42,537 bases of DNA from UHGV virus genome UHGV-0420230; one strand, 5' to 3'. Both the position numbers and the translations under genes were made by a program. Source of the DNA: a virus. Positions 2,559-38,206 of the stretch are shown here, piece after piece. Position 1 is the first letter of the stretch, and each line of letters opens with the position of its first letter. A model generated the notes under the pieces. The model saw nothing but the letters and a program-made list of their open reading frames with translations. It searched no databases and was not told the origin of the DNA.

Positions 2559-3799
2559 TGTTCTTTTCGGGATTATTTCAACGAAAAAGTGACGCACCGG
2601 TGACCACGCCAGCAGAGCTGGTGGATGCTATCGGGCTGTCATACGACACCTATACCGGAAAGCAGATCAGCAGCCAGAGGGCCATGCGACTGACGGCGGT
2701 TTTTTCCTGCGTCAGGGTGCTGGCGGAGTCGGTCGGGATGTTGCCCTGCAACCTGTATCACCTGAACGGCAGCCTGAAGCAGAGAGCCACTGGCGAACGT
2801 CTGCATAAGCTGATCTCCACGCATCCCAATGGCTATATGACGCCGCAGGAGTTCTGGGAGCTGGTGGTCACCTGTCTGTGCCTGCGGGGAAACTTTTACG
2901 CCTACAAAGTGAAAGCATTTGGCGAAGTGGCTGAACTGCTGCCCGTCGATCCCGGCTGTGTGGTACCGAAGCTTAACAGTAGCTGGGAGCCGGTCTATCA
3001 GGTCACATTCCCGGATGGCTCCACGGATGTACTGAGCCAGGAGGATATCTGGCATGTGCGCACGCTGACGCTGGACGGACTGGTGGGGCTGAATCCCGTC
3101 GCCTATGCCCGCGAGGCAATATCGCTGGCGGCAGCGACCGAAGAGCACGGGGCCAGACTGTTCAGCAATGGCGCGGTGACGTCGGGTGTGTTGCGTACAG
3201 AGCAGACGCTGTCAGATCAGGCTTATGAGCGCCTGAAGAAAGATTTTGAGGAGCGTCACACCGGGCTTGGCAATGCTCACCGCCCGATGATCCTTGAGAT
3301 GGGGCTGGACTGGAAGTCGATGGCGCTGAACGCCGAGGACAGCCAGTTCCTGGAAACCCGCAAGTTTCAGCTTGAAGAAATCTGTCGTCTGTTCCGTGTG
3401 CCATTGCACATGGTGCAGAACACCGATCGCGCCACCTTCAACAATATCGAAGAGCTGGGGCTGGGATTTATCAACTATTCACTGGTGCCGTATCTGACCC
3501 GCATTGAGCAGCGGATCAACACCGGACTGGTACGAAAAAGTAAGCAGGGCGTTTATTACGCCAAATTTAACGCCGGGGCGTTACTGCGCGGGGATATGAA
3601 GTCCCGTTTTGAAGCCTACGCCACCGGGATTAACTGGGGAATTTACTCTCCCAATGACTGCCGCGACCTGGAAGATATGAATCCGCGTCCCGGTGGGGAT
3701 GTCTATCTCACACCGATGAACATGACCACGAAACCCTCCGATGGCAGTAAAGCCGGTAAGCAGAAGGATAACGCCAATGCAGACGAAACAACGTCTTGA
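2558..3799 (+). CDS. portal protein (HK97 family)
   Basis: 413 aa in the canonical position after the large terminase; GTG start with GGAGG upstream; portal-like sequence. Confidence 0.8.
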   Translation: MFFSGLFQRKSDAPVTTPAELVDAIGLSYDTYTGKQISSQRAMRLTAVFSCVRVLAESVGMLPCNLYHLNGSLKQRATGERLHKLISTHPNGYMTPQEFWELVVTCLCLRGNFYAYKVKAFGEVAELLPVDPGCVVPKLNSSWEPVYQVTFPDGSTDVLSQEDIWHVRTLTLDGLVGLNPVAYAREAISLAAATEEHGARLFSNGAVTSGVLRTEQTLSDQAYERLKKDFEERHTGLGNAHRPMILEMGLDWKSMALNAEDSQFLETRKFQLEEICRLFRVPLHMVQNTDRATFNNIEELGLGFINYSLVPYLTRIEQRINTGLVRKSKQGVYYAKFNAGALLRGDMKSRFEAYATGINWGIYSPNDCRDLEDMNPRPGGDVYLTPMNMTTKPSDGSKAGKQKDNANADETTS

Positions 3800-30571: not shown

Positions 30572-31225
30572 TCAAAAATCCATTATTACTTGTTTGACAA
30601 GACCAACTATTCTGCAGTTCTCACCGCATTCAATAGTTTTATAGTTAGGATTTAGTGGGACGAGATACCTGTTCGGCCAGTCCTCAACAAATTTTTTGAG
30701 TGTCGCTTCTTGCCCACCATTGATATGGGCAACAACGATTTTTCCGTTAATACACTCTGTATCAATAATATCTGGCTCTACGATAACGATAGAACCTTCT
30801 GGTATCGATGGTGAGCCGAGGGGATTGGTCATTGAATCACCACGGACCCGTAGTGCAAATGCCATTTCTGATACAAGGGCGGTAGTATAAACCCACTCTT
30901 CAGCATCTTCTTTCCTGACACCAGGCTCCGTCATTGTCCATGAACCCGCCTGAACCCACGAGATGAGGGGGACTTTTTTAACTGCGAATATTTCAGGTTT
31001 TAGATTTATCTTTGGTTCAGGCGAGCCTTTTCCGCTAACAAGCCACAGAGGATCGCATTTAAGTGCGTTGGCTAGGGCTTGAAGGTTGGCTCCATTTGGT
31101 TGGTAGTCGTCCTTTTCCCATCCAGTAACCGTGACACGGTTCACACCAGTCAAATCAGCCAGTGCTTGTTGTGTCAGGTTCAGTTCTTTTCGCCTTTGGC
31201 GAATACGATCACTCATGTTCATCAT
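30572..31225 (-). CDS. CI-like repressor (HTH plus S24 LexA-like peptidase domain)
   Basis: N-terminal HTH (LTQQALADLTGVNRVTVTGWE); C-terminal RGDSM...K motif of self-cleaving repressors; divergent from the Cro-like gene. Confidence 0.85.
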   Translation of the reverse strand: MMNMSDRIRQRRKELNLTQQALADLTGVNRVTVTGWEKDDYQPNGANLQALANALKCDPLWLVSGKGSPEPKINLKPEIFAVKKVPLISWVQAGSWTMTEPGVRKEDAEEWVYTTALVSEMAFALRVRGDSMTNPLGSPSIPEGSIVIVEPDIIDTECINGKIVVAHINGGQEATLKKFVEDWPNRYLVPLNPNYKTIECGENCRIVGLVKQVIMDF

Positions 31226-31288: not shown

Positions 31289-31320
31289 TTCTGCTTAACG
31301 TAATTTAACGGGAGACAGAA

Positions 31321-31518
31321 ATGCGGAAATCCGACGTGATTAATTATTTCGGCGGAGTTTGTAAAACCGCCGAAGCCCTAGGTATTAAGCATCCGTCTGT
31401 TTCAGAGTGGCCTGAGATTATTCCTGAAGGCCGAGCGTACCAGTTAGAAAAAATTACTAACGGGAAACTGAAAGTTGACGTGTCTTTATATCAAAAGACT
31501 AACAGTGCTGCGGCATAA
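31321..31518 (+). CDS. Cro-like regulator
   Basis: 65 aa small HTH protein divergent from the repressor; GGGAGA RBS. Confidence 0.7.
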   Translation: MRKSDVINYFGGVCKTAEALGIKHPSVSEWPEIIPEGRAYQLEKITNGKLKVDVSLYQKTNSAAA

Positions 31519-31545
31519 AAACACCACAGAAATGAGGAATTAACC

Positions 31546-32130
31546 GTGGGTAAAGAACCTGAATGGAAAGTTGATAAACAACCAGCATGGCTGGTGGCAG
31601 CAATACGAAGAACGATTGCTGATTTACCTCATGGCTATGAGGAAGCAGCAGAAATTCTTGGTTTGTATAAATCTGATGATATCACCCCAGCAAAAGATCA
31701 ATTGCATAACAGACTGCGTAGCGGTGGGGATCAAATTTTTCCACTTGAGTGGGCCATGGTTTTACAGGATGCCAGTGGTACCAGGCATGTAACAGATGCA
31801 ATAGCCCGTCGTAGTAATGGGGTGTTTGTGCCGCTGGTGGTCATTGATGACATTGACAATGGTGACATTAATCAGCGGCTGATGGAGTCAATAGAATGGA
31901 TTGGCAAGCATTCCCGGTACTTACGCAAGGCAACTGCTGATGGAGTTATTGACCAAGCTGAGCGTGAGCAAATCGAAGAGAACAGCTACCAAGTAATGGC
32001 GAAGTGGCAGGAGCATTTAACACTGTTATTTCGTGTTTTTTGTGCGCCGGAAAAGAGTAACGCCCGCGAGTGTGCAGCTCCGGGCGTCGTGGCGTCGATT
32101 GCTTCTGGTTGTGGAGAAACTAACGCATGA
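31546..32130 (+). CDS. YmfL/CII-like early regulatory protein (hypothetical)
   Basis: 194 aa following Cro; GTG start with GAGGAA RBS; assignment by position and size only. Confidence 0.5.
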
Positions 32131-32465
32131 ACAGTTTAACAACACACTACCGTCGCTCGCAACTGATTGCGCTTCCTGTACCGGGTGGAAAAGCGAAGGT
32201 GGAGTATTGCTATGCAGTGAATGTACCAGGTGACAGGGAAATTGTAACCCACAGCTTTGCAGAGTGGGCTGTGGGTGATTTCAACCGGCAGAAGGAGACA
32301 GTCCTTTGCAACAAGTTAACCGCTGGTTCAAAGATCACTACGGAGTGCCCGTCAGAGTCATTCGTTGGGAGCCGGAAACACAACGGGTTATCTACCTCCG
32401 TGAAGGCTATGAACATGAATGCTTCAGTCCGCTCGAACAGTTTCGTCGTAAATTCAGGGAAATAG
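32127..32465 (+). CDS. hypothetical protein (YmfM-like by size and position)
   Basis: 112 aa; ATGA overlap with upstream gene; 3' half overlaps an alternative frame. Confidence 0.4.
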
Positions 32466-32497
32466 AGGTCGGTCATGAGCAAACCAGTAATGATTGA
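32306..32497 (+). CDS. hypothetical protein, TTG start (alternative overlapping frame)
   Basis: AGGAG at 32293-32297 precedes TTG 32306; product more protein-like than the overlapping frame; stop overlaps the Rha start. Confidence 0.4.
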
Positions 32498-33317
32498 TTC
32501 TGATAATTCTGAGCGTTATATTGTTCTGGCAGCGGCAAAATCCGTTGCCGGGATTGGCGTCCCGGAATTTTCCACAGCGCACAACCGCGCTAAAGCGGTT
32601 TTTTTGTGTGCAATGCACGGCTACATCCAGATTATGGTGGGCCGGGCAGGGGCATCGAAAGATGCGCCGGTATCTGTGGAAGCCGGTTACGCCAACCCTG
32701 TTCGGTTCACCACCAGTCAGATTGGCGTCTGTGGTGGTGATTGTCCAAATCATTCCACAGGGGCTGTCGTGATGACTACTATCCCAACCCTCGCACAACC
32801 TGAAATTACGGTTATCAACGGCCTGGCCGTTACTTCTTCCCTAGCTATTGCCGACTACTTCGCCAAGCGTCATGACGATGTACTGAAAAAGATCCGCACG
32901 CTTGAATGCTCAGCATCATTCACTGCCCGCAATTTTTCGGTGAGTGATTACACTGATTGCACAGGTCGCAAACTTCCTTGCTACCAAATCACACGCGACG
33001 GTTTTGCGTTTCTTGCTATGGGTTTCACGGGTAAACGTGCTGCCCAGTTCAAAGAGGCATACATCAATGCCTTTAACCAGATGGAGAAACAGCTTTCAAA
33101 GCCCTCTGTACCGAGCGACGTTGCACATAACGCCAGCGTTCTCTGTTCCTACATTTCATCAATTCATCAGGTCTGGTTGCAGCAGCTTTATCCCATGCTG
33201 GAAAAAGCTGAATCACCGCTGGCTGTAAGTCTGTATGACCGAATTAACGATGCGGCATTTCTTGCCCGTCTTATTCATTCGTCGCTGAACTCTTCAGAGG
33301 TAAGGGGGCGCAAATGA
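32475..33317 (+). CDS. Rha-family phage regulatory protein
   Basis: ITVINGLAVTSSLAIADYFAKRHDDVLKKIRTL...ITRDGFAFLAMGFTGKRAAQFKEAYINAFNQME resembles the Rha domain. Confidence 0.7.
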   Translation: MSKPVMIDSDNSERYIVLAAAKSVAGIGVPEFSTAHNRAKAVFLCAMHGYIQIMVGRAGASKDAPVSVEAGYANPVRFTTSQIGVCGGDCPNHSTGAVVMTTIPTLAQPEITVINGLAVTSSLAIADYFAKRHDDVLKKIRTLECSASFTARNFSVSDYTDCTGRKLPCYQITRDGFAFLAMGFTGKRAAQFKEAYINAFNQMEKQLSKPSVPSDVAHNASVLCSYISSIHQVWLQQLYPMLEKAESPLAVSLYDRINDAAFLARLIHSSLNSSEVRGRK

Positions 33318-33538
33318 TCCGGAATATTTTCAAACGATTTACCAATCAGACTTTCCGTTGTCCTCGCCCCGGTCAGTGGTACACCACGCCTGCAGGGCAT
33401 GTTCTACGTGTTAGCCTGGTTGACCGTGAATGCCAGAAGGTGATTTGTGAACCGCTGGGCCGTAATTACCGCGTCAGTATGCCGCTTATAGCCTTTCGCT
33501 CCGGAAAAAACATGAAGCATCTCGGAGGTGCGGCATGA
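33314..33538 (+). CDS. hypothetical protein
   Basis: 74-aa ORF with overlapping start and stop codons in the early-right operon. Confidence 0.45.
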   Translation: MIRNIFKRFTNQTFRCPRPGQWYTTPAGHVLRVSLVDRECQKVICEPLGRNYRVSMPLIAFRSGKNMKHLGGAA

Positions 33539-34527
33539 GCCTGTTAATGACATCCCAGCCCATTGTGATAAATCGTGATCTTGCATGCCGTATTGGTCTG
33601 AATGAGGCAATTGTGTTGCAGCAGCTTCATTACTGGCTGAATGAAACGAATTCAGGCACTGAGCATGGCGGAATTCGCTGGGTTTATAACACGACAGAAC
33701 AGTGGCTGGAGCAGTTTCCGTTCTGGTCAGAGTCCACTCTGAAACGCACATTTGCAAGCCTGAAATCACTTGGGGTTTTGCGTCGCGAGAAACTCAATAA
33801 ATCGAAGCGTGACATGACCAACTTCTACACGATCAACTATGAAAGTGAGCTTTTAGAAGAGGTCAAAGTGAACGAATCCATCAGGTCAAAATGCACCTCT
33901 CCATCGGGTCAAAGTGACCTGATGGATGAGCGCAAAATGACACGATCCATTGGTTCAAAACGACACGCTGTCATCGGGTCAAAATGGCCCAATGATCTTA
34001 CAGAGAATACAACAGAGATTACTACAGAGAATAAAACCTCTTCTCGTCCGGACGCTTCGCAACCGGACACGCAGATGGCTGAACAGGATTTTTTAACTCG
34101 CCATCCTGATGCGGTTGTATTCAGCCCTAAAAAGCGCCAGTGGGGAACGCAGGATGATTTGACCTGCGCACAGTGGCTCTGGAAAAAAATCATCGCTCTG
34201 TACGAGCAGGCCGCCGAATGTGACGGCGAAGTGGTACGTCCTAAAGAACCGAACTGGACAGCCTGGGCAAACGAAATTCGCCTGATGTGTGTACAGGATG
34301 GGCGTACTCACAAACAAATCTGCGAGATGTACAGCCGCGTCAGCCGCGATCCGTTCTGGTGCCGTAACGTGCTCAGCCCGTCGAAGCTGCGGGAAAAATG
34401 GGATGAGCTTTCCCTGCGCTTATCGCCGTCCGTCAGCACGTACACAGAAAAACGCGAAGACCCGTACTTCAAAGCCAGTTACGACAATGTGGACTACAGC
34501 CAGATCCCGGCAGGATTCAGGGGGTGA
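33535..34527 (+). CDS. replication initiation protein (O-like, with DnaT-like C-terminal domain)
   Basis: 330 aa; N-terminal winged-helix-like region, C-terminal ...NWTAWANEIRLMCVQDGRTHKQICEMYSRVSRDPFW...; iterons embedded in the gene. Confidence 0.7.
   Translation: MSLLMTSQPIVINRDLACRIGLNEAIVLQQLHYWLNETNSGTEHGGIRWVYNTTEQWLEQFPFWSESTLKRTFASLKSLGVLRREKLNKSKRDMTNFYTINYESELLEEVKVNESIRSKCTSPSGQSDLMDERKMTRSIGSKRHAVIGSKWPNDLTENTTEITTENKTSSRPDASQPDTQMAEQDFLTRHPDAVVFSPKKRQWGTQDDLTCAQWLWKKIIALYEQAAECDGEVVRPKEPNWTAWANEIRLMCVQDGRTHKQICEMYSRVSRDPFWCRNVLSPSKLREKWDELSLRLSPSVSTYTEKREDPYFKASYDNVDYSQIPAGFRG
33855..33990. repeat. origin iterons inside the replication initiator gene
   Basis: Five copies of GGTCAAA(A/G)TG-like core (33861, 33884, 33907, 33952, 33977) spaced about 23 bp, several preceded by TCCATC. 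Confidence 0.6.
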
Positions 34528-34529
34528 TC

Positions 34530-35018
34530 ATGAGTCTTTTGAATGACGTTCAGAAATTCATTGAAGCCCATCCGGGCTGTACTTCCGGAGACATTGCGGA
34601 TGCTTTTGCAGGTTACTCACGGCAGCGCGTTCTGCAGTCAGCAAGCAAGTTACGTCAGAGTGGGCGTGTGGCTCACCGTTGTGAAGGAGATACACACAGA
34701 CATTTCCAGCGCCTGACTGAGAGAGCGCAGGATCCGGAACCACAACCAGTTCGTGAAACCAGACCTGTGCGCAATTTCTATGTCGGCACTAACGACCCGC
34801 GGGTGATTTTGTGCCTGACCCGCCAGGCGGAAGAACTGGAGTCCAGGGGCTTATACCGTCGTGCTGCAACGGTGTGGATGGCGGCATTCCGTGAAAGCCA
34901 CTCCCAGCCAGAACGAAACAATTTTCTGGCGCGTCGTGAGCGGTGCTTACGGAAAAGCAGCAAGCGCGCTGCATCGGGTGAAGAGTGGTATCTGTCAGGG
35001 AATTACGTGGGGGCTTAA
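34530..35018 (+). CDS. PerC-family-like transcriptional regulator
   Basis: ...AEELESRGLYRRAATVWMAAF...RRERC resembles PerC-type regulators; ATG 34530 follows GGGGGTGA. Confidence 0.55.
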   Translation: MSLLNDVQKFIEAHPGCTSGDIADAFAGYSRQRVLQSASKLRQSGRVAHRCEGDTHRHFQRLTERAQDPEPQPVRETRPVRNFYVGTNDPRVILCLTRQAEELESRGLYRRAATVWMAAFRESHSQPERNNFLARRERCLRKSSKRAASGEEWYLSGNYVGA

Positions 35019-35671
35019 TGAGTAATAAATATTGCCAGGCGCTGGTGGAACTGCGGAACAAACCAGCCCATGAACTGAAGGACGTGGGCGATCAGTGGCG
35101 CACGCCGGACAACATTTTCTGGGGAATTAACACCCTGTTTGGCCCGTTTGTTCTGGATCTGTTCACTGACGGTGATAACGCCAAATGTGCTGCGTATTAC
35201 ACGGCGGAAGACAACGCGCTGGCGCATGACTGGTCAGAACGTCTTGCGGAGCTTAAAGGTGCTGCCTTTGGTAATCCCCCATACAGCCGCGCCAGTCAGC
35301 ATGAGGGGCAATACATCACCGGCATGCGTTACATCATGAAGCATGCCAGTGCCATGCGTGATAAGGGCGGGCGCTATGTTTTCCTGATCAAAGCTGCCAC
35401 CAGCGAAGTGTGGTGGCCGGAAGATGCAGATCATATTGCTTTTATTCGCGGGCGTATTGGTTTTGAACTGCCTGTCTGGTTTATCCCGAAAGACGAGAAG
35501 CAGGTACCGACAGGCGCTTTCTTCGCTGGTGCTATTGCTGTTTTCGACAAGACCTGGAAGGGACCGGCAATCAGCTACATCGGGCGCGATGAACTTGAGG
35601 CATGTGGTGAGGCCTTTCTGGCGCAGGTTCGCCAGCAGGCGGAAAAACTGGTCAGGGAGATGGCGGCATGA
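35018..35671 (+). CDS. DNA N6-adenine methyltransferase (phage Dam-like)
   Basis: ...GAAFGNPPYSRA... motif; start overlaps the upstream stop (TAATG). Confidence 0.8.
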   Translation: MSNKYCQALVELRNKPAHELKDVGDQWRTPDNIFWGINTLFGPFVLDLFTDGDNAKCAAYYTAEDNALAHDWSERLAELKGAAFGNPPYSRASQHEGQYITGMRYIMKHASAMRDKGGRYVFLIKAATSEVWWPEDADHIAFIRGRIGFELPVWFIPKDEKQVPTGAFFAGAIAVFDKTWKGPAISYIGRDELEACGEAFLAQVRQQAEKLVREMAA

Positions 35672-35994
35672 CGACGTTAACTCAATGCCAGCAGCAGGTG
35701 CTGGATATGCTGATTTCTTACCAGAAAGAACGTGGCTTCCCGCCAACCAATCAGGAGGTGGCAACCATGCTGGGATACCGTTCGGTGAATGCAGCGGTGG
35801 AGCATCTTCGCGCACTGGAGAAAAAAGGCGTCATCACGATAAAGCGTGGCGTGGCCCGGGGGATAACGCTTCATACCGCGATGAAGGACGACGACAGCGA
35901 GGCGGTCGGGATTATCCGCTCACTGCTTGCCGGTGAGGAAAACGCCAGGCTGCGTGCAGCCCACTGGTTACATGAGAGGGGCCTGAAAGTATGA
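35668..35994 (+). CDS. LexA-like DNA-binding domain protein (no peptidase domain)
   Basis: LTQCQQQVLDMLISYQKERGFPPTNQEVATMLGYRSVNAAVEHLRALEKKGVITIKRGVARGITL aligns closely with the E. coli LexA N-terminal domain; ends at 108 aa. Confidence 0.75.
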   Translation: MTTLTQCQQQVLDMLISYQKERGFPPTNQEVATMLGYRSVNAAVEHLRALEKKGVITIKRGVARGITLHTAMKDDDSEAVGIIRSLLAGEENARLRAAHWLHERGLKV

Positions 35995-36380
35995 AGCTGA
36001 TCCTGCCTTTTCCGCCCAGCGTGAACACGTACTGGCGACACCCCAACAAAGGGGCGTTTGCTGGTAAGAGCCTGATAAGCGCGGCGGGGCGAAAATTCCA
36101 GAGCGCGGCGTGCGCTGCAATAGTTGAGCAGTTACGTCGTCTGCCGAAACCAACGTCGGCACCTGCTTCAGTGGAGATCGTGTTGTTTCCTCCGGATAAC
36201 CGGATCCGCGATCTGGACAACTATAACAAGGCGCTGTTTGACGCCCTGACCCACGCGGGGGTGTGGGAAGACGACAGTCAGGTGAAAAGAATGCTGGTGG
36301 AGTGGGGACCGGTTATCCCGGAAGGGAAGGTCGAGATCACTATCAGTAAGTACGAGAAAACGGCGGGTGCAGCTGCCTGA
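35991..36380 (+). CDS. rusA: RusA-family Holliday junction resolvase
   Basis: 129 aa, ...DLDNYNKALFDALTHAGVWEDDSQV... typical RusA motif. Confidence 0.85.
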   Translation: MKLILPFPPSVNTYWRHPNKGAFAGKSLISAAGRKFQSAACAAIVEQLRRLPKPTSAPASVEIVLFPPDNRIRDLDNYNKALFDALTHAGVWEDDSQVKRMLVEWGPVIPEGKVEITISKYEKTAGAAA

Positions 36381-36399
36381 TTAAGAGGAGAAACGAAGT

Positions 36400-37209
36400 A
36401 TGAATAATCTGATGGTCATTGATGGTATTGAAGTTCGTCGTGATGCTTATGGGCGTTACAGCCTGAACGATCTGCATCGCGCAGCAGTAGCATCTGGTGC
36501 AAATGCCAGAACCAAGGAGCCAGGAAAGTTTCTTTCCAGCCAACAAACTGTTGAGCTTGTTCATGAATTAACCAACACCCAGAATTTGGGTGTTGACCCG
36601 GTGAGTGTGATTCATGGGGGAAATGAACGGGGAACGTATGTCTGTAAGGAACTGGTGTATGCCTATGCAATGTGGATCAGCCCGTCATTCCATCTGAAGG
36701 TGATCCGTACTTTCGATATGGTAACCAGCGCGCCGGAAAAGTTATCCGGACAGGCTGCTGACAAGATGCAGGCTGGCGTGATTCTGCTGGACTTTATGCG
36801 CCGGGAGTTAAATCTGTCTAACTCATCTGTGCTTGGGGCCTGTCAGAAACTCCAGGAGGCTGTTGGCTTACCGAATCTGGCACCGCGCTATGCCATTGAT
36901 GCTCCTGCTGACGCGCCTGATGGCTCAAGTCGCCCGACACTGTCGCTGAGTGCACTGCTGAAACAGTATGGTATCCGCCTTACGGCTAATCAGGCATATC
37001 ACCAGATGGTGAAGCTGGGGATCGTCGAGCAGCGCGAACGATACAGCCGTACCGCGATTAACAACATCAAAAAATTCTGGTCGCTGACAGCGAAAGGCTG
37101 CATGTTCGGCAAGAACATCACCAGTCCCGCAAATCCGCGCGAGATGCAGCCGCATTTCTTCGAATCCCGATTCCCTGAGCTGTTAAAGCTGCTCGATACC
37201 GTTCATTGA
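36400..37209 (+). CDS. KilA-N domain protein (antirepressor-like)
   Basis: N-terminal KilA-N-like region (VIDGIEVRRDAYGRYSLNDLHRA...YAYAMWISPSFHLKVIRTF); AGAGGAG RBS. Confidence 0.7.
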   Translation: MNNLMVIDGIEVRRDAYGRYSLNDLHRAAVASGANARTKEPGKFLSSQQTVELVHELTNTQNLGVDPVSVIHGGNERGTYVCKELVYAYAMWISPSFHLKVIRTFDMVTSAPEKLSGQAADKMQAGVILLDFMRRELNLSNSSVLGACQKLQEAVGLPNLAPRYAIDAPADAPDGSSRPTLSLSALLKQYGIRLTANQAYHQMVKLGIVEQRERYSRTAINNIKKFWSLTAKGCMFGKNITSPANPREMQPHFFESRFPELLKLLDTVH

Positions 37210-37210
37210 G

Positions 37211-38206
37211 GTGACCGTGAGAGCACTACTGACCCCTGAAATAGCCCCGCGTATGGGGATTGTATTGTTCAGACCAGGTTCAGAGCTGATGCCCCTGTTT
37301 ATGCAGGGGCGTGTCCTGCTGGAGCCTGAGCCGGAACGTTATTCATCTTTCGCCAGTGGTGCCGTTCCGGCGGCATCACAACCGCTGGCGGATGATCCTG
37401 CCGTTAGGGCCGTGTTCCGCAATGAGGCAGTGATCCGTCGTGCTGGTGGCGTGGAATGTCTTGAAAGCTGGTTACTTCGTGAAAAAGGCTGCCAGTGGCC
37501 TCATTCCGACTGGCACAGCGAGAACATGACCACAATGCGACACGCGCCGGGCGCGATCCGTCTGTGCTGGCACTGCGATAACCAGCTGCGCGATCAGTTC
37601 ACGGAACGGCTGGAATCAATGGCAACGGATAACTGTGCCCGCTGGGTGTTGTCTGTAGTCCGTCTGGATCTCGGTTTTGATGATAACCATGCCGTGACAA
37701 TGCCGGAACTGTGCTGGTGGCTGATTCGTAATGACCTGGCGGATGCCTTACCGGAAAGTGCAGCCCGTAAGGCACTGAGATTACCGAAGCCTGTTGTGCC
37801 GTCTGTCACCCGGGAAAGTGACCTTGTGCCTTCGGTTCCTGCCACCAGCATCATCCAGGATAAGGCGAAAAAGGTGCTGGCGCTGAAAGTGGATCCGGAG
37901 TCGCCGGAGTCTTTTATGTTACGCCCAAAACGCCGCCGCTGGGTTAATGAAAAGTACACGCGCTGGGTTAAGACACAGCCGTGTGCATGTTGTGGAAAGC
38001 CTGCTGATGATCCCCACCACCTGATAGGCCACGGTCAGGGTGGAATGGGTACAAAAGCGCATGACCTCTTTGTGTTGCCTTTGTGCAGAAAGCATCACGA
38101 CGAGCTGCATGCGGATACCGTGGCATTTGAAGAGAAGTATGGCTCTCAGCTGGAGCTGATATTTCGTTTTATCGATCGTGCGCTGGCAATTGGCGTATTG
38201 GCGTAA
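37211..38206 (+). CDS. DUF968-domain protein (HNH-like C-terminus)
   Basis: C-terminal ...QPCACCGKPADDPHHLIGHGQGGMGTKAHDLFVLPLCRKHHDELH; GTG start. Confidence 0.6.
   Translation: MTVRALLTPEIAPRMGIVLFRPGSELMPLFMQGRVLLEPEPERYSSFASGAVPAASQPLADDPAVRAVFRNEAVIRRAGGVECLESWLLREKGCQWPHSDWHSENMTTMRHAPGAIRLCWHCDNQLRDQFTERLESMATDNCARWVLSVVRLDLGFDDNHAVTMPELCWWLIRNDLADALPESAARKALRLPKPVVPSVTRESDLVPSVPATSIIQDKAKKVLALKVDPESPESFMLRPKRRRWVNEKYTRWVKTQPCACCGKPADDPHHLIGHGQGGMGTKAHDLFVLPLCRKHHDELHADTVAFEEKYGSQLELIFRFIDRALAIGVLA

Follow-up and report, generated by a model that had tools for sequence, protein, structure and literature searches.

We analysed the replication region of the UHGV virus genome UHGV-0420230, a stretch of 42,537 nucleotides (the window, always meant at this full length), in which the gene for a replication initiator carries an array of short repeats that we read as a candidate replication origin. 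The region around this origin is 98.5% identical to Escherichia virus mEp460_4F5, and the full stretch represents a lambdoid phage of E. coli that is nearly complete. The initiator open reading frame (ORF) sits in the rightward early operon and matches PHROG 391 ('replication initiation O-like', E = 1e-101). Its product has four parts: an N-terminal domain with a predicted winged-helix fold, a linker encoded by the repeats (iterons), a lambda-O-type C-terminal domain, and a tail of the type found in the host protein DnaT. The coordinates of these features are collected in Table 1.

Table 1. Features of the initiator gene and its embedded origin (window coordinates).
Feature	Coordinates	Strand	Remarks
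Replication initiator gene, 330 amino acids	33535..34527	+	ORF list; PHROG 391
N-terminal DNA-binding domain, predicted winged helix	33535..33852	+	presumed iteron reader
Iteron 1 core	33861..33873	+	GGTCAAAGTGAAC
Iteron 2 core	33884..33896	+	GGTCAAAATGCAC
Iteron 3 core	33907..33919	+	GGTCAAAGTGACC; inverted repeat, a perfect dyad; including flanks CCATCGGGTCAAAGTGACCTGATGG
Iteron 4 core	33930..33942	+	GCGCAAAATGACA; degenerate here, relatives have GGTCAAAATG
Iteron 5 core	33953..33965	+	GTTCAAAACGACA; degenerate
Iteron 6 core	33977..33989	+	GGTCAAAATGGCC
A-rich low-stability tract, candidate DNA-unwinding element	33995..34040		12-bp repeat ACAGAGAATACA x3.2; encodes TENTTEITTEN
Mosaic joint against SfII-type phages	34028..34047		to the left, other N-domain and repeats; to the right, 97-100% identical
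C-terminal globular domain	34081..34416	+	homologous to lambda O residues 171-270
Disordered C-terminal tail	34453..34524	+	REDPYFKASYDNVDYSQIPAGFRG; last 9 residues coded by 34498-34524

Tandem Repeats Finder (TRF) placed 5.4 copies of a repeat with a period of 23 bp at 33861-33986. When the repeat core GGTCAAARTGACC is followed in register, the array extends over 33861-33989 within the initiator ORF and comprises six cores, with starts spaced by 23, 23, 23, 23, and 24 bp. A reading of this DNA made from the letters and ORF translations (the sequence-only reading) had placed five GGTCAAA(A/G)TG-like cores at about 23-bp spacing inside the initiator gene; the place and spacing stand, while the count is corrected to six. 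Four of the six cores match GGTCAAARTG exactly and two are degenerate (GCGCAAAATG and GTTCAAAACG). The exact core is absent from the rest of the window; by base composition, 126 bp should hold 0.0003 occurrences and the whole window, with both strands counted, 0.19. The array also gives the strongest periodic autocorrelation (12-39 bp) among all 126-bp segments of the 42.5 kb. The repeat unit is a dyad of about 25 bp, CCATCG-GGTCA-AAR-TGACC-CGATGG, which is perfect in copy 3 and partial in the other copies. A search for DnaA boxes found none in or beside the origin, with the nearest 1.3 kb upstream and their number equal to chance expectation.

Nine bp past the last iteron begins an A-rich 12-bp repeat (34000-34037; TRF). 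The tract that contains it has a GC content of 33% and an A-skew of +0.56, and positions 33995-34035 form the least stable 40-bp duplex of the early-right operon (31300-38200), in the top 0.8% of the window. An AT-rich element adjacent to the iterons, for which the sequence-only reading had proposed to look, is thus present as the duplex-stability minimum of the operon. The A-rich tract was found in all relatives with the same N-domain. The copy number of its 12-bp repeat differs among them (e.g., L011, L019, and P0041), as expected of a slippage-prone unwinding element in a tolerant linker.

We compared ten non-redundant homologues (72-77% amino acid identity) from Escherichia, Citrobacter, Enterobacter, Raoultella, and Izhakiella. 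All six iterons occupy identical gene positions in all ten. The mean pairwise identity at third codon positions was 0.548 in the N-domain (nucleotides 1-300) and 0.804 in the repeat region, where first and second positions had identities of 0.82 and 0.88, and the codon periodicity of divergence is lost in the array. Conservation of third positions at 0.80 against 0.55 indicates that the DNA itself is constrained, beyond the peptide that it encodes. The N-domain, iterons, and A-rich tract also behave as a single unit, found joined to at least two different C-domains, a lambda-O-type domain (the window, L009-12, and L019) and Phg_2220_C (L013-18). Conversely, the initiators of SfII/SfIV and mEp460 have other N-domains (HTH_36), each accompanied at the corresponding site by repeats of its own that differ from these. 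Where Megablast aligns the window with SfII, SfIV, Kati, SKA5, and others, the match begins at query position 726 (window 34025), and sliding identity places the mosaic joint just past the A-rich tract. Such block exchange of N-domain, repeats, and A-rich tract is how an initiator and its cognate origin should behave.

Scans of the initiator protein against NCBIfam and against Pfam, the latter even at E ≤ 10, returned no match, so membership of Phage_rep_O or DnaT cannot be claimed from family models. The N-terminal Phage_rep_O model (PF04492) is among those absent at this threshold, whereas lambda O itself matches it at 5.7e-36. A search against PDB sequences was likewise empty even at E = 10. 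A single-sequence structure model of moderate confidence gives the N-domain a RepA_N/DnaD-type winged-helix fold. The C-domain is 39% identical to lambda O residues 171-270 over 112 amino acids (tblastn, E = 6e-23), a segment within the P-binding C-terminal part of lambda O. For its model (predicted local distance difference test score, pLDDT, of 80), no solved structure was a significant neighbour, and there was no match to DnaT.

Relatives of the N-domain were also seen in less expected places. ORFs of about 790 amino acids in Deferribacterales and Proteobacteria metagenome-assembled genomes (MAGs; L023, L024, and L025) begin with two tandem N-domains of the window type, followed by iteron-like peptide repeats (e.g., RPQPDQSRPQPDQSRPQLDQ…) and a long Cys-rich C-terminal region; these are distant relatives of the initiator N-domain outside the enterobacteria. 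An Escherichia-type prophage replication module is filed under Firmicutes MAGs in L011 (titled Veillonella parvula) and L012 (Bacillota), most likely through binning error or contamination.

How this phage recruits a helicase is the second question posed by the locus. Searches of the whole window (tblastn) with the P protein of lambda and with DnaC and DnaB of E. coli found nothing better than E = 0.6, so the claim of the sequence-only reading that no helicase-loader gene is apparent near the initiator can be extended to the entire window. The 61-gene annotation of the complete phage mEp460_4F5 likewise lists no loader or helicase gene. A scan by C-domain alignment retrieved 80 related IMG/VR loci, all at least 98% identical to the query, and none has a loader within 3.5 kb.

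The feature of the initiator that bears on this question is its tail. The last nine residues, SQIPAGFRG, match the DnaT C-terminus SQIPPGFRG at eight of nine positions, both at the extreme C-terminus (BLASTP), and an alignment of the initiator family with the DnaT profile (hhalign) covers DnaT residues 161-179 alone (probability 92.6%, E = 4.6e-7). Those residues read RDVNTVSEPDSQIPPGFRG, and other family members end in RDVNAISEPDNTIPEGFRG or VNHISEPDTEIPPGFRG. A DnaT-like C-terminal region had been assigned to the protein from the sequence alone; this holds for the terminal 9-19 residues and fails for the globular domain, which is the lambda-O homologue described above. We found neither the three-helix DNA-binding domain of DnaT (PF17948; Pfam, hhalign) nor any similarity to its N-terminal oligomerisation domain and acidic PriB-binding linker (BLASTP, hhalign). 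The tail of DnaT itself lies outside the Pfam DnaT domain (PF17948, residues 89-154), and residues R161, D162, S167, P169, D170, I173, P174, G176, F177, R178, and G179 are invariant among DnaT orthologues. In the structure model of the initiator, the tail has low confidence.

The tail is well kept among phages of this kind. The SQIPAGFRG C-terminus is identical in 79 of the 80 IMG/VR copies (the remaining copy ends …IPAGFRGGL), and the motif is conserved in the loader-less relatives L009-L015, L017, and L018. The mEp460 initiator, which has another middle domain, shares its final 24 residues with the window protein. When 1.84 billion representatives were searched with a tail profile, 47 proteins matched, nearly always at the C-terminus; these have several unrelated architectures, DnaT among them. 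Two forms of the motif can be told apart. An aromatic-rich sub-variant, F[KR]xS[YF]xN[VT]DY[ST]x[IV]PxGFRG, occurs in the window, SfII, mEp460, L013, L017, and L018, none with an adjacent loader. The form RDVNxISxPDxxIPxGFRG occurs in DnaT and most loader-adjacent initiators, and also in L009-L012, which lack an adjacent loader.

Across phages, this tail follows the type of helicase loader encoded next to the initiator. A DnaT-type tail was present on 147 of 151 initiators beside DnaC-type loaders and on 0 of 93 beside P-type loaders. The first group is made up of initiators upstream of YdaV-like loaders in IMG/VR (76 of 76 callable) and of initiators that precede loaders sharing 48-54% identity with E. 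coli DnaC (71 of 75, two of these loci being the host dnaT-dnaC pair itself), and it spans at least 12 N-terminal types, including true Phage_rep_O and DnaT-domain initiators. Window-type initiators occur there as well (L183, with all six iterons, and L276). The P-type sets (0/15, 0/2, and 0/76) all have W-rich ends, either …WNxxxxWExxL or, in lambda, …TNTDWIYGVDL. Among relatives from the genome collection with the window N-domain, a different tail, GGHWNSPEAWENTL, is found only in L016 and L019, and these alone precede a lambda-P homologue (PF06992, E = 1e-56). They provide minimal pairs in which tail and loader are switched, L013 against L016 with the Phg_2220_C domain and L009 against L019 with the lambda-O-type C-domain. 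Three of the tail-profile matches, of the DUF1376 type and another type, have an IstB_IS21/DnaA-type AAA+ protein, i.e., a DnaC-type loader, directly 3'. In E. coli K-12, the Rac protein YdaU ends in …VSLPDSAIPPGFRG just before the DnaC-like YdaV. We regard the tail as the key feature of the initiator because it tracks DnaC-type loaders in this way, and its constancy with such loaders and absence with P-type loaders make it most likely a loader-docking peptide. No description of this tail-loader rule was found in the literature searched.

Several further observations concern the same genes. In L110, from the K-12 cryptic prophage Rac, ydaU lies at 2120-2977 (tail …VNTVSLPDSAIPPGFRG) and ydaV at 2984-3730. 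The W-rich ends form a second conserved tail, [HED]WN[ST]x[EQ][AG]WE[NDS][TV]L, in the P-type-paired initiators L016:3013-3915, L019:412-1476, and L193-L208; the lambda O end looks like a variant of it, and this tail may be a P-docking peptide. A third tail, …EQFI[SP]EDF-COOH, occurs on three initiators beside DnaC-type loaders (L219:1689-2504, L277, and L286) and recalls the C-terminal …DDDIPF of SSB. The initiators L244:1536-2483 and L253:583-1446 contain a complete PF17948 domain (E = 4e-13 and 4e-14) together with the tail and are followed by a DnaC-type loader. Given phage initiators with this full combination, the host dnaT-dnaC pair looks like a domesticated phage pair. Residue A84 of DnaC is invariant across E. 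coli DnaC and four tail-associated phage DnaC-like loaders, and the A84Y substitution (dnaC1331) blocks PriA/PriB/DnaT-dependent loading (PMC11087952). Because 29% of columns are likewise invariant, this residue is a weak lead.

On this evidence, the locus is likely a theta-replication origin of the phage that resembles ori-lambda in its build, lies within the initiator gene, and is served by a host loader that is borrowed through the tail. Dimers of the N-terminal winged-helix domain would bind the six dyad iterons, the resulting nucleoprotein complex would strain and open the adjoining A-rich tract, and the flexible DnaT-type tail would dock the host DnaB-DnaC at the opened origin, where the initiator would act as an origin-bound mimic of DnaT. 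The assignment of origin recognition and opening, which draws on the anatomy of the locus and on comparative constraint, is very probably correct. For the tail as a docking peptide for host DnaB-DnaC, the association across phages tips the balance in favour. The central proposal of the sequence-only reading (origin iterons inside the initiator gene, no phage loader, and use of host primosome components) finds support in all the computational tests applied.

Several points weigh against the docking role. In the host, DnaT's N-terminal domain, and not the tail, has been proposed as the recruiter of DnaB/DnaC (Ducos et al., 2026; PMC13377028), and no contact between DnaT and DnaC has ever been shown (PMC11087952). 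Deletion of DnaT residues 154-179 modestly lowers affinity for single-stranded DNA (ssDNA), with the dissociation constant doubled and cooperativity lowered (PMC4132743), and the tail could accordingly serve in DNA binding. A 'DnaT_C' match is also present in DopC, whose partner, in bacteria without DnaC, is nonetheless a P-derived protein (PMC5509034). The window tail (…YDNVDYSQIPAGFRG) is a sub-variant without the RDVNxISxPD part. The DNA that encodes the tail directly adjoins the loader gene, with 0-30 nucleotides between it and the start of that gene in every pair, and physical linkage in mosaic exchange could thus account for part of the association. Finally, many of the counted loci are near-identical prophages, and the counts therefore represent about a dozen independent architectures rather than about 150.

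The missing DnaT-DnaC contact and the deletion result speak for the alternative that survives best, namely that the origin is real but the tail acts by docking on PriA or PriB, with a PriA-dependent primosome forming at the opened origin, or by binding the unwound ssDNA and stabilising it, instead of contacting DnaC/DnaB. The C-terminal domain of DnaT docks on PriA and filaments on ssDNA (PMC13377028), as this alternative would have it. We nevertheless consider it unlikely. A role with PriA or ssDNA gives no reason for a tail that is near-universal with DnaC-type loaders and missing with P-type loaders, a tail on the PriA site of DnaT would still leave DnaB/DnaC recruitment unexplained, and the tail lies outside the structured DNA-binding domain of DnaT.

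The adjacency of tail codons and loader gene would allow a second alternative, in which the association is one of genetic linkage alone and the tail is a relic in loader-less phages, with the helicase recruited through the lambda-O-type C-domain or by another route. Lambdoid genomes are indeed mosaics with joints at domain borders. Linkage as the sole cause is more unlikely still, since the motif is kept by the loader-less phages listed above and persists while identity among the loaders has fallen to 48-54% and the domains before it are unrelated, and its positions are likewise invariant in chromosomal DnaT.

An unrecognised helicase adaptor could instead be encoded at 34524-35018. This YfdN/PerC-like gene is translationally coupled to the initiator, overlapping its stop codon, and occupies the position of lambda P; a YfdN-like gene comes after the initiator in all 80 IMG/VR loci, and likewise in SfII, SfIV, mEp460, L013, L015, and L018. 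Its product matches the PerC transcriptional-activator family and a MarR-like winged helix-turn-helix (HTH), with no similarity to P, DnaC, or DnaB. A YfdN-like gene is absent after the tail-bearing initiators of L009-L012 (DUF977 instead), L014, L017, and L112, for which reason we rate a hidden loader here as very unlikely. Least credible of all is that the repeats, which do lie inside an ORF and encode loosely repeated peptides (…IRSK…SGQS…IGSK…), are a by-product of a repetitive linker with no DNA-level function, given the third-position conservation and lost codon periodicity of the array, its dyads and exact 23-bp phasing kept across the ten homologues and their genera, repeats that switch whenever the N-domain does, and the stability minimum beside them.

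The docking of host DnaB-DnaC by the tail would have consequences beyond this phage. We see even chances for a portable 'loader code', in which DnaT-type tails would dock DnaC-type loaders of phage or host and W-rich tails would dock P-type loaders. Under this code the DnaT tail would recruit DnaB-DnaC to PriA/PriB/DnaT, dnaT-dnaC would be a domesticated phage pair, and loader-less phages would present a DnaT mimic at their origins. If it is true, the invariant tail of DnaT would be the missing link that brings DnaB-DnaC to the PriA/PriB/DnaT preprimosome. Structural and biochemical work published in 2024 and 2026 calls the route from DnaT and the preprimosome to DnaB/DnaC recruitment unknown and reports no contact of DnaC with any restart protein (PMC13377028, PMC11087952). 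The phage comparison singles out one 19-residue peptide for this step, would account for the replication of lambdoid phages without P, and suggests a phage initiator-loader pair as the ancestor of dnaT-dnaC. Interest and testability lie mainly in the tail-loader rule; the origin itself is a textbook arrangement.

The main import of the origin lies in annotation. The N-domain and iteron module is present in 1840 of 5426 complete E. coli genomes (34%), so that about a third carry it, and yet the 98.5% homologue of the initiator is named 'hypothetical protein' by the annotation pipeline PGAP; the RAST server names it 'Primosomal protein I'. The origin is an ordinary and very common lambdoid module that is apparently uncharacterised. 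Over 33535-34040, identity is 100% both with chromosomal prophages of E. coli and with circular records of 43.7 kb. NZ_CP081704.1 and NZ_CP081794.1, from complete E. coli assemblies, are separate replicons of about 43.7 kb that are 100% identical over the origin module and accompany a chromosomal copy; each is probably the phage genome, excised and circular, entered in the assembly as a 'plasmid'. The genes around the origin run in the order cI (30572-31225, minus strand), cro-like, cII-like, Rha/Ash, a 74-residue DUF4222 protein, and the initiator, and on its 3' side follow, in order, the PerC/YfdN-like gene, dam, a gene with a LexA DNA-binding domain, rusA, KilA-N, and DUF968.

Comparison with lambda bears out the ori-lambda arrangement that the sequence-only reading had recognised. 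In both phages the initiator gene contains the origin, placed between the stretches that encode the N- and C-domains and with a mosaic joint at the origin and linker, and the origin consists of dyad iterons with an A-tract centre, spaced by about two helical turns (~23 bp) and followed by an A/T-rich tract. The iterons occupy nucleotides 327-455 of the window gene, before a 33%-GC tract, and nucleotides 349-433 of the lambda O gene, before a 22%-GC tract. Lambda, analysed with the same tools, has four dyads (core TCCCTCAAAACGAGGGA, TCAAAAC centre) spaced by 20, 24, and 23 bp, as opposed to six in the window, where both the iteron sequence and the N-domain, which is not Phage_rep_O, are different. 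The window also lacks a P gene, with a PerC/YfdN-like gene on the 3' side of the initiator, and its initiator ends in the DnaT-type tail in place of …TNTDWIYGVDL. Like the window, the Stx phages 933W and P27 have six iterons, which lie within the O gene and make its linker longer (Kozlowska et al., 2020; PMC7466680). These phages have lambda-type O and P proteins and have been tested in vitro, whereas the window differs in N-domain, tail, and predicted loader dependence.

The closest modules are those of the SfII/SfIV/SfV/mEp460 type, which share the gene order cI-cro-cII-…-initiator-yfdN-dam-lexA-like-rusA, have no loader, and are identical in the C-half or tail of the initiator; unlike SfII/SfIV and mEp460, the window has another N-domain and iteron set. 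No characterisation of origins of this type was found in the literature searched. Phage replication modules that encode an initiator and no loader were reportedly termed 'initiator-solo' by Weigel and Seitz in 2006. The window, with no helicase or loader gene in 42.5 kb, fits this description. The Rac pair YdaU-YdaV has the same tail class, but YdaU has a DUF1376 N-domain and another C-proximal domain and is accompanied by its own loader gene, where the window has none. For pSK41 RepA (RepA_N; PDB 4pta), the likeness to our moderate-confidence single-sequence model is at the level of fold only (11% identity), and hosts and C-domains differ.

On the host side, DnaT orthologues have an invariant C-terminal RDVNxxSxPDxxIPxGFRG-COOH, which the phage initiators share, and the dnaT-dnaC gene order mirrors that of phage initiators and their DnaC-like loaders. 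The window protein differs from DnaT in having neither its N-domain nor its three-helix domain, and DnaT acts at abandoned forks through PriA/PriB and not at a sequence-specific origin. DopC/DopE offer a further parallel as an O-like N-terminal HTH protein with a DnaT C-terminal match (Brezellec et al., 2017; PMC5509034). DopC differs in being chromosomal, without iterons, and paired with a P-derived partner in bacteria without DnaC; the paper does not say if the tail is part of its DnaT match (PMC5509034). Judged by its sequence relationships, the window initiator is a relative of lambda O by its C-domain, stands apart from Phage_rep_O by its N-domain, and, while not a member of the DnaT family, shares the DnaT tail.

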